A stretch of 8,928 bases of DNA from a virus (Duplodnaviria > Heunggongvirae > Uroviricota > Caudoviricetes). The notes beneath the pieces are model-generated. The model was not told the DNA's origin. It was given only the letters and a program-made list of their open reading frames with translations, and made no database searches. The first letter of the stretch is position 1. Each line of letters starts with the position of its first letter. The stretch lies in IMG/VR virus record IMGVR_UViG_2657245131_000016, one strand, 5' to 3'. The position numbers and the translations under genes are program-made. This document shows positions 937 through 1,627 of the stretch, piece by piece.

Positions 937-1143
937 TGAGAAATCCTCTGCTTCCCCTTAACGCCGGGTAGCGGAACTGTTTGCTGAGAACACCGTGCGG
1001 TGTCTTGATGAGTAGAATTTAGAATAACCTAAGAGTTATGGTCAAGCTTTTTGTGTAGAAAAACCTAAGCTTCTTGATGTAAAAAACACAAGTATTTGAA
1101 AGTTTGTGCTTTTTATTACAGAGAGTTGCGAAAAAAAGGGGGG
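937..1143. promoter_or_regulatory. OL/pL-like control region between the repressor gene and the leftward early genes, with repeated operator-like motifs
   Basis: Direct repeats AACCTAAG at 1026-1033 and 1062-1069, and TCTTGATG at 1003-1010 and 1072-1079. The same AACCTAAG motif recurs inverted in the repressor/cro intergenic region. A weak hairpin plus T-run at about 1087-1114 could terminate the repressor transcript. Confidence 0.4.
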
Positions 1144-1551
1144 TTATTTATTTGCGCTTCTTTTGCGAGCTTTGAGTAGTTCTTCAAAAAGTTTGTTGAA
1201 ATTCTCAACTCGAGCACGCATCTCTGACAACAGAGCCTTTTGCTCTGACTCAGGCAGTGCGTCGAACAGTTGAAGCAACTCTTTTTGATCTTCTGTCAGA
1301 TTGACTGGCTGATTATCTGGGATCGGTTCGCCTGGTTGCTTATCTTCATCTCCAAAAAGAAGCCAAGTCGGCGAGCACTGAAGCGCCTGGCTCAGTGCGA
1401 ATAATCTCTTCCCCGCTGGCTGTGTTTCATCTCTTTCCCATTGAGAAATTGTTACGTGAGCCACTTTGACCAGCTTACCTAATGCGGCCTGAGACAGTTT
1501 TAATTTTTTTCGCCTGTATAAGAGGCGAGCACCGAAGGTTTCGTTTTTCAT
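1144..1551 (-). CDS. dicA: prophage repressor, DicA-like (XRE-family helix-turn-helix; no LexA-type S24 peptidase domain)
   Basis: 135 aa. The N-terminal helix-turn-helix (LSQAALGKLVKVAHVTISQWERDETQP), the FALSQALQCSPTWLLFGDEDKQP stretch and the C-terminal NFNKLFEELLKARKRSANK match my recollection of E. coli Qin DicA, which is also 135 aa. It sits divergent to a cro-like gene. The protein is too short for a C-terminal peptidase domain. Confidence 0.85.
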   Translation of the reverse strand: MKNETFGARLLYRRKKLKLSQAALGKLVKVAHVTISQWERDETQPAGKRLFALSQALQCSPTWLLFGDEDKQPGEPIPDNQPVNLTEDQKELLQLFDALPESEQKALLSEMRARVENFNKLFEELLKARKRSANK

Positions 1552-1627
1552 ATTAGGTAATTCTAATTTTTCTTGACTTAGGTTTCTCTACGATCTAGTT
1601 TTCTTAGGAAAATCTAAGGGGTTCGAT
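1552..1627. promoter_or_regulatory. divergent promoter/operator region (OR-like) between the repressor and the cro-like gene
   Basis: Candidate rightward promoter: -35 TTGACT at 1573-1578, 17-bp spacer, -10 TAGTTT at 1596-1601, then an AAGGGG Shine-Dalgarno before the ATG at 1628. Operator-like motifs: CTTAGGTT at 1577-1584 (reverse complement of AACCTAAG) and the inverted pair CTTAGG/TCTAAG at 1603-1618. The repressor ATG has no obvious Shine-Dalgarno, so it may be leaderless. Confidence 0.5.

Follow-up and report, generated by a model that had tools for sequence, protein, structure and literature searches.

Among the closest described systems to the one considered here is the DicA/DicC/Rem switch of the Qin prophage of Escherichia coli K-12. 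The K-12 repressor DicA, which has 135 residues compared with the 216 of P22 c2 and lacks the Ala-Gly bond, represses the promoter dicBp, and mitomycin C gives no induction (PMC10448788). DicA also represses dicC and is required for its own transcription (PMC3441716), and it has been grouped with non-cleavable repressors related to the Gifsy repressors (Lemire 2011; PMC3121763). Expression from dicBp is raised 165-fold by Rem, a small Qin-encoded protein; spontaneous switching takes place in about 1% of the cells, is independent of recA and rem and depends on DicC, and urea and heat also induce the switch (PMC10448788).

Here, the immunity region at positions 937–1627 of an 8,928-nucleotide stretch of viral DNA (IMG/VR record IMGVR_UViG_2657245131_000016; the whole stretch is referred to as the window) was compared with these systems. 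Together with the adjoining dicC gene, this region very probably constitutes the immunity switch of a defective lambdoid prophage that resembles Qin, is of the type deposited in GenBank as PPompW and is inserted beside ompW. What was established directly is the family to which the proteins belong, their domain content, the sites together with their conservation, and the fact that Rem is encoded in the window.

Genes of the Immunity Region

The switch genes and the gene that follows them are:
1144–1551, minus strand: dicA-family repressor gene, 135-amino-acid (aa) open reading frame (NCBIfam DicA model and K-12 homology)
1628–1855, plus strand: dicC, Cro-like divergent regulator, 75 aa (NCBIfam, Pfam and K-12 homology)
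1839–2390, plus strand: YdaT-like protein, 183 aa (PHROG 163)

The 135-residue repressor frame singled out in an earlier note on this DNA is present as described there, and it belongs to the DicA family. The NCBIfam model NF007257 ('transcriptional repressor DicA') matches it with 241.6 bits (cutoff 101) over residues 1–135 of a 135-position profile, and the protein is 63% identical to K-12 DicA, which has the same length; 11 of the 21 residues of helices 2 and 3 are shared. The divergent 75-residue protein is matched by the NCBIfam model NF007282 for DicC (167.6 bits, cutoff 130) and is 83% identical to K-12 DicC.

Pfam names raise the alternative of a toxin-antitoxin-like module, in which the repressor would act as the antitoxin over the 'toxins' YdaS (here DicC) and YdaT, with no lysis-lysogeny switch. 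The YdaS_toxin match of the 75-residue protein is weak (18.8 bits, below the cutoff of 30) and the YdaT_toxin match of the 183-residue protein lies at the threshold (21.2 bits, cutoff 21), whereas the former protein passes the P22_Cro model (3.2e-13; 49.7 bits, cutoff 30.2) as well as the DicC model, and the latter matches the PHROG family 'CII-like transcriptional activator' at 5.1e-38 and is directly followed by O/DnaT-like and P replication genes. The toxin naming of YdaS and YdaT has since been revised, and the two proteins of the cryptic prophage CP-933P have been recast as counterparts of Cro and CII. In K-12, moreover, DicB and DicF cause the toxicity that appears when DicA is lost (PMC10448788). 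A toxin-antitoxin module is thus very improbable, and the genes are best read as those of an immunity switch, with the 183-residue protein as a probable CII-like regulator of the rightward operon.

Operators and Promoters

Five predicted operators, listed without a strand, and two promoters lie on the two sides of the repressor gene:
1603–1618: right operator nearest dicC, CTTAGGAAAATCTAAG; 0 mismatches; positional equivalent of K-12 Oc
1577–1592: middle right operator, CTTAGGTTTCTCTACG; 1 mismatch; Om equivalent
1552–1567: right operator touching the dicA start codon, ATTAGGTAATTCTAAT; 2 mismatches; Oa equivalent
1018–1033: left operator 1, minus strand CTTAGGTTATTCTAAA; 1 mismatch; top weight-matrix match
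1054–1069: left operator 2, minus strand CTTAGGTTTTTCTACA; 2 mismatches; kept across genera
1573–1601, plus strand: dicC promoter, -35 TTGACT at 1573–1578, 17-bp spacer, -10 TAGTTT at 1596–1601 (read from the sequence and aligned to K-12)
1016–1045, minus strand: leftward promoter, equivalent of K-12 dicBp and PL analogue, -35 TTGACC at 1045–1040, -10 TAAATT at 1021–1016 (promoter scan, 9/12)

The operators of this allele are 16 bp long and have the form CTTAGG-N4-TCTAAx. The search pattern CTTAGR-N4-YCTAAG, with up to two mismatches allowed, has five matches in the 8.9-kb window compared with 0.68 expected, and all of them fall inside the 207-bp and 76-bp spacers that flank the repressor gene. 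In a leave-one-out weight-matrix scan of about 17,800 positions, every omitted site was the best non-training match in the window, and the weight matrix found no sixth site in the 20-kb locus L001, whose RefSeq annotation was used for gene context. An unbiased repeat search also recovered the operator sites, which make up its highest-ranking direct family (D1) and its four highest-ranking inverted pairs (I1–I4).

These results sharpen the note's description of one motif repeated at four positions on both sides of the repressor gene. Exact copies of the 8-mer AACCTAAG, on one strand or the other, do occur at 1026–1033, 1062–1069 and 1577–1584 (three copies compared with 0.20 expected, a number that 0 of 200 shuffles reached), but 1603–1618 has none and is instead a palindrome of two half-sites. 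Operator sets on both sides of the gene are borne out, and they are conserved across genera; their number is five rather than four, the site at 1552–1567 having been missed, and the repeated unit is an asymmetric palindrome.

The sites are placed closely around the promoters. The operator at 1603–1618, with which K-12 Oc (TTGTTAGTCATAACTAACAA) aligns, extends over the predicted start of dicC transcription and into the dicC Shine-Dalgarno sequence, and the operator at 1577–1592 sits in the spacer of the dicC promoter and shares the last 2 nt of its -35. This promoter aligns base for base with the K-12 dicC promoter, whose start site has been mapped by 5' rapid amplification of cDNA ends (PMC3441716). 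On the other side of the gene, the operator at 1018–1033 overlaps the spacer and the -10 of the leftward promoter (TTGACC-N18-TAAATT), and the operator at 1054–1069 lies directly upstream of its -35, which aligns with that of K-12.

The arrangement was compared with K-12 and with 11 loci that encode relatives of the repressor (53–74% identity) from seven enterobacterial genera (Pantoea, Enterobacter, Erwinia, Escherichia, Buttiauxella, Citrobacter and Yersinia). A plan of three upstream and two downstream operators recurs in all 11 loci. Upstream, a TTAG-N6-CTAA palindrome lies about 67 bp from the dicA ATG, a half-palindrome is fused to the -35 of the cro-like promoter, and a third site touches the ATG; downstream, two sites surround a TTGACC/TTGCC -35 and are followed by a conserved leader. 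The equivalent of 1603–1618 is kept at -67 from the dicA ATG in 10 of the 11 loci, and that of 1552–1567 at -16/-17 in all of them. The operators at 1577–1592 and 1018–1033 show almost no change in the loci of Pantoea, Enterobacter (where a single base differs) and Erwinia, with diverging flanks around the latter operator. In the three loci with the window-type recognition helix, the operator islands are near-invariant and the DNA straight after the dicA stop is unalignable. The outermost base of the half-site tracks helix 2 of the repressor, being C with 'SQAAL' and G with 'TQRxx', in two groups only, which are phylogenetically linked.

Each of the five operators is asymmetric and combines a half of TTAGG with one that reads either TTAGA or GTAGA. 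The G-half points toward dicA in all of them, so the left and right sets are mirror images. The sets lie about 490–590 bp apart, measured centre to centre, and looping between them is conceivable.

The repeats could also be taken for something other than operators, either chance similarity of AT-rich DNA or sites of host nucleoid proteins (H-NS, IHF, Cnu). The spacers are indeed AT-rich, the CTTAGG 6-mer alone is not enriched in the window (5 observed, 2.85 expected), and a Cnu/H-NS complex acts at the K-12 dicA-dicC region (PMC3441716). By contrast, the full 16-bp pattern is confined to the two spacers and is palindromic with the geometry of P22 operators; the sites are kept across genera while neighbouring AT-rich DNA diverges, the outer base changes along with the residues of repressor helix 2, and the aligned K-12 site has been proven genetically, single base changes in Oc abolishing DicA binding in vivo (PMC3441716). 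Chance or nucleoid-protein sites are therefore a most improbable explanation, and the five sites are read as operators in what follows.

Three further elements accompany the promoters. Two are listed as features:
937–1009, minus strand: leftward-operon leader, in which two hairpins form from ACACC-GCAC-GGTGT and from CCC-GGCGTTAA-GGG (conservation)
1080–1115, minus strand: candidate dicA terminator, an AT-rich hairpin with a run of T after it (inverted repeat I12; arms of 12 nt, 92% complementary)

About 50 nt of the leader are near-identical to K-12, and the leader is kept across genera. Its second hairpin shows two compensatory pairs among eight sequences, with modest covariation in RNAalifold, and no Rfam family matches the leftward-operon leader; a role as a processing or antitermination site is a guess. 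The terminator hairpin sits in an insertion of about 38 nt relative to K-12, directly after the dicA stop. It was not called by the terminator scan of the window because it has few G-C pairs, and it is the probable dicA terminator. The third element concerns the dicA start. Direct reading of the window shows no Shine-Dalgarno sequence before the dicA ATG (1549–1551, minus strand), and the same holds in all 11 loci. A TAGAAT hexamer lies inside 1552–1567, 9–14 nt upstream of the ATG; with low confidence, it might be the -10 of a leaderless or near-leaderless dicA transcript, like that of lambda cI from PRM.

Repressor Structure

The 135-residue protein is a full-length DicA that consists of a P22 c2-like N-terminal domain and a conserved two-helix C-terminal module. 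Residues 2–69 match the N-terminal domain of P22 c2 (PDB 1adr) with E = 1e-21 and 62% identity. The AlphaFold2 (AF2) model is all-helical, with a predicted local distance difference test score of 88.7, and shows a five-helix helix-turn-helix (HTH) domain (residues 6–66), a linker (67–86) and two helices (87–98 and 101–134). In Foldseek, the N-terminal domain superimposes on operator-bound P22 c2 (3jxb) with a template-modelling (TM) score of 0.97, target-normalised, and a root mean square deviation (rmsd) of 0.5 Å. The C-terminal module carries the motif ELxxLFxALPxSEQ...NFNxLFxELLxAR, which is conserved in the DicA family, and it has a mean identity of 68% across 58 family members, compared with 32% for the linker. 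Whole-chain Foldseek matches to structures of the SinR/SinI and arbitrium-phage repressor/AimX pairs (PDB 1b0n, 9sf2 and 9iaq) are weak, with TM scores of about 0.43, rmsd values of 8–10 Å and about 20% identity (for 1b0n_A, 0.43 and 9.7 Å). A likeness of the DicA C-terminus to the winged helix of RovA/SlyA, as claimed in PMC3441716, was also considered and finds no support: the model has two helices at this place, and no MarR-family structure is found among the top 50 Foldseek matches.

The absence of an autoprotease domain, which had been proposed from the length of the protein, is upheld by each of the searches made. The Pfam scan of the repressor returned HTH families only and no Peptidase_S24 match, the AF2 model has no beta-rich domain, and no S24 structure is present among the top 50 Foldseek matches. 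Only about 50 residues remain after the linker. An S24 domain is listed for none of the best 120 of 299 homologue clusters (E ≤ 1e-10), nearly all of which are 130–140 aa long. The only Ala-Gly of the repressor, at residues 46–47, lies within the HTH domain, and a linker Ala-Gly as a cleavage site is not conserved (1 of 59 family members). The idea that a peptidase domain or cleavage site lies concealed in the protein was accordingly discarded. The repressor is not an autocleaving S24 type and, lacking an autoprotease domain, it would not be inactivated through RecA-stimulated cleavage.

An immunity region of the lambda CI or P22 c2 type, in which RecA-stimulated self-cleavage inactivates the repressor, is almost certainly the wrong description: although the N-terminal domain is close to that of P22 c2, repressor and cro diverge around three operators in the lambdoid manner and PPompW prophages were excised after mitomycin C (PMC8112680), the searches above gave no peptidase match, no conserved Ala-Gly in the linker and no S24 domain among the 120 best homologue clusters, the residues after the linker fold as two helices, and the K-12 DicA switch does not respond to mitomycin C and flips independently of recA (PMC10448788).

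Rem and Derepression

With a non-cleavable DicA at its centre, the immunity switch would have to be released in another way, and the earlier note had suggested that induction may need an antirepressor. A candidate is encoded in the window:
6951–7211, plus strand: rem homologue, 86 aa, candidate antirepressor (homology to K-12 Rem)

The protein and K-12 Rem have 73% identity (E = 2e-40). Its gene is flanked by hokD and the DUF968 gene, which is also the position of rem in K-12 Qin, and is 5.4 kb from the immunity switch. Its presence is consistent with antirepressor-dependent induction, an idea that has also been published for K-12 (PMC10448788). In a phage collection, Rem homologues and DicA-type repressors are found together in PPompW, mEp460, HannyBb, PhiR42_1 and a 'Rac' record, the last of which annotates the pair as repressor and antirepressor.

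The linkage was analyzed in IMG/VR contigs in which a close homologue of Rem is preceded by 6.8 kb or more of DNA (loci L017–L096). A DicA-family repressor is encoded 5.0–8.0 kb from Rem, on the opposite strand, in 55 of 55 such contigs. Cognate pairs would be expected to show co-variation of Rem with DicA specificity; the opposite was seen, and this expectation is rejected. Rem proteins that are 90–100% identical to the window copy are paired in cis with at least five N-terminal (specificity) types of DicA, whose N-terminal-domain identity to this allele goes down to 21 of 65 residues, while the C-terminal motif ELxxLFxALPxSEQ is kept in all. Tentatively, Rem might act as a generalist, recognising the two-helix C-terminal module that DicA-family repressors have in common and not the N-terminal specificity domain, a possibility that we regard as somewhat unlikely. 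If it holds, one Rem could switch on several heteroimmune DicA-type prophages at once in a polylysogenic strain of Shiga-toxin-producing E. coli (STEC). The pairing could equally reflect backbone synteny, with immunity cassettes swapped by mosaic recombination.

LexA control of induction was considered and set aside. The sole exact CTGT-N8-ACAG in the window, CTGTTAATAAAAACAG at 2693–2708, lies inside the O/DnaT-like replication gene, is at chance level and has no gene start after it, and none is found upstream of rem. The LexA-like match nearest to rem (7247–7262) is downstream of the gene and without the CAG arm.

The hokD-rem spacer is conserved with K-12 and contains a candidate rem promoter, TTGAAG-N18-TAGAAT (6841–6872, plus strand). 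The palindrome TTCCGGACGGCGCCGGAA in its spacer, which is not a LexA box, may be the site for a regulator of rem.

The switch may then be pictured as follows, with the binding of DicA to the individual sites, repression, autoactivation and the role of Rem taken over from the homologous systems. A DicA dimer would bind the 16-bp CTTAGG-N4-TCTAAx operators through its P22 c2-type HTH domain. The three predicted right operators overlap the dicC promoter and the dicA start. The two left ones lie on either side of the -35 of the leftward promoter and extend across its -10; this promoter would drive a dicBF-like operon of cell-division inhibitors. Because both promoters carry operators, bound DicA should silence both lytic-direction operons and probably, as K-12 suggests, activate its own gene as well. 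DicC, as a Cro-like protein, would be the opposing repressor in a bistable switch. Derepression would occur through Rem or, alternatively, by spontaneous, heat- or denaturant-driven flipping of the switch, as in K-12, and should bypass the classical SOS/RecA cleavage route.

Several observations weigh against this picture. The TTGACT with a 17-bp spacer that had been seen ahead of the cro-like gene is present and aligned to K-12, but the consensus scan did not call the dicC promoter because its -10 is weak (3 of 6 matches) beside the strong -35. When tested alone, K-12 Om and Oa gave no DicA binding and only Oc was bound (data not shown in PMC3441716), so some of the five predicted sites may be weak or bound only cooperatively; binding of DicA at each of them is expected from homology. 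DicA and Rem are only 63% and 73% identical to their K-12 counterparts, so that we infer their cognate action. The hok-rem spacer contains no CTGT-N8-ACAG with up to one mismatch, that is, no LexA box upstream of rem. Finally, PPompW prophages with an identical DicA were reportedly excised and circularised in cultures treated with mitomycin C (PMC8112680). This is not simply what the non-induction of K-12 would predict and could represent basal excision or cross-talk, as the strains carry inducible Stx phages.

Prophage Context

Window positions 500–2400 match the chromosome of E. coli O121 strain RM8352, and those of many other Shiga-toxin-producing strains, with 100% identity, and at least 80% of this interval is held by 523 of 5426 complete E. 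coli genomes. The RM8352 locus is a decayed lambdoid prophage adjoining ompW. In the orientation of the window, its left part comprises a frameshifted integrase, an excisionase and an exonuclease, then ydfD, dicB and ydfC, and then the repressor and the cro-like gene. The YdaT-like gene, the O/DnaT-like and P replication genes, a DUF1627 gene and then paa, hokD and rem follow in the middle, and the right end consists of the frameshifted DUF968 gene, a terminase fragment and IS3, which truncates the late region. The Qin prophage of K-12 and the PPompW prophages are laid out in the same way.

The leftward operon includes the following features:
580–936, minus strand: first leftward-operon gene (PHROG 21318, residues 20–118, 8.6e-67); the product is probably 99 aa, with its start ATG at 879
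289–507: ydfC, after the 580–936 gene in the operon (RefSeq annotation of L001)
L001 7766–7815, minus strand: DicF-like small RNA, upstream of dicB and outside the window

The DicF-like RNA, dicB and ydfD lie further downstream in the operon, beyond the window, in L001. At the gathering threshold, the Rfam scan of the flanking locus returned no DicF, and an E-value search gave 43.5 bits compared with the gathering score of 48; the score is under the threshold because the 3' stem differs, while the 5' part is identical to K-12 DicF.

Other features of the prophage lie to the right of the replication genes:
5484–6242, plus strand: paa, AcfC-family adhesin with a solute-binding-protein fold
6431–6580, plus strand: sok antisense RNA (Rfam, 103.9 bits)
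6579–6733, plus strand: hokD toxin gene
8870–8928, plus strand: partial match to Rfam isrC, an Hfq-binding small RNA family (59.7 bits, gathering score 39)

The paa gene is cargo, with the replication genes on one side and hokD on the other, and the fimbrial-protein gene that adjoins it is a pseudogene in the RefSeq annotation. sok and hokD form a type I toxin-antitoxin pair directly upstream of rem. The isrC match ends at the window edge and adjoins the terminase fragment.

Comparison with Known Systems

The region is a variant of the switch already worked out in K-12, real and ordinary. A non-cleavable repressor controlled by an antirepressor is not a new idea, as it is the published model for K-12 DicA/DicC/Rem (PMC10448788, PMC3441716, PMC3121763), and no new question is opened, since mechanism, operators and antirepressor have already been described for the K-12 homologue. 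The allele-specific part is the operator sequence and hence, probably, a separate immunity group, which is a routine extension. Because about one in ten complete E. coli genomes carries the module almost unchanged, the operator consensus is useful for annotation and for predicting immunity groups.

One comparison is with SinR/SinI and with the repressor and AimX of arbitrium phages, which share a Cro/C1-type HTH followed by a short helical C-terminal module and, by analogy, the neutralisation of the repressor by a small protein; the likeness to SinR-type proteins is one of architecture only, and the Foldseek matches are weak. The P22 c2/Cro/immC system has a Cro of the P22_Cro family and the same operator geometry. 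The P22 half-site TTTAAG, as in the 2r1j and 3jxb operators, has the same spacing and is two positions off CTTAGG. The repressors differ in that the 216 residues of c2 include an S24 autoprotease/oligomerisation domain with an Ala-Gly cleavage site, whereas the C-terminus here is an unrelated two-helix module.

The GfoR, GtgR and GfhR repressors of Gifsy-1, -2 and -3 are likewise short (about 135–150 aa) and non-cleavable, and a small antirepressor is encoded outside the immunity region; Gifsy antirepressors can face heteroimmune repressors, and DicA is listed as a homologue (PMC3121763). The Gifsy antirepressor genes are directly LexA-controlled, whereas no LexA box was found upstream of rem here. 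Apart from this box, the window system would work like the antirepressor-controlled Gifsy type, with the activity of this Rem copy anticipated by analogy.

The PPompW prophages of STEC and enteropathogenic E. coli (LC567836 and related; Nakamura 2021, PMC8112680) encode a DicA that is 100% identical and a Rem that is 98.8% identical. They share the gene order, paa, hok and the ompW insertion site, and their immunity region is without difference; the identical DicA protein is annotated as 'dicA: regulator for DicB' in the GenBank records, with rem annotated nearby. The window copy differs in being further decayed, with its truncated late region and frameshifted integrase and DUF968 genes.

The K-12 Qin switch, on which there is reportedly earlier work by Bejar in 1986 and 1988, is matched by the window in most respects. 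In both, dicC and dicA are divergent, a dicBF-type operon lies downstream of dicA, and DicA has 135 residues and is built of the same two domains. The spacer shared by dicA and dicC contains three operators and more are present at the downstream promoter, the -35 elements TTGACT and TTGACC and the leader are conserved, and Rem is encoded between hokD and ydfU (DUF968). The window prophage is located at ompW, whereas Qin is at its own site, and it keeps the YdaT/CII-like gene and the O/P replication genes, both of which Qin has lost. The operators are CTTAGG-N4-TCTAAG here and GTTAGT-N4-ACTAAC in K-12, a difference that makes the two prophages probably heteroimmune and would place the window switch in an immunity group of its own.

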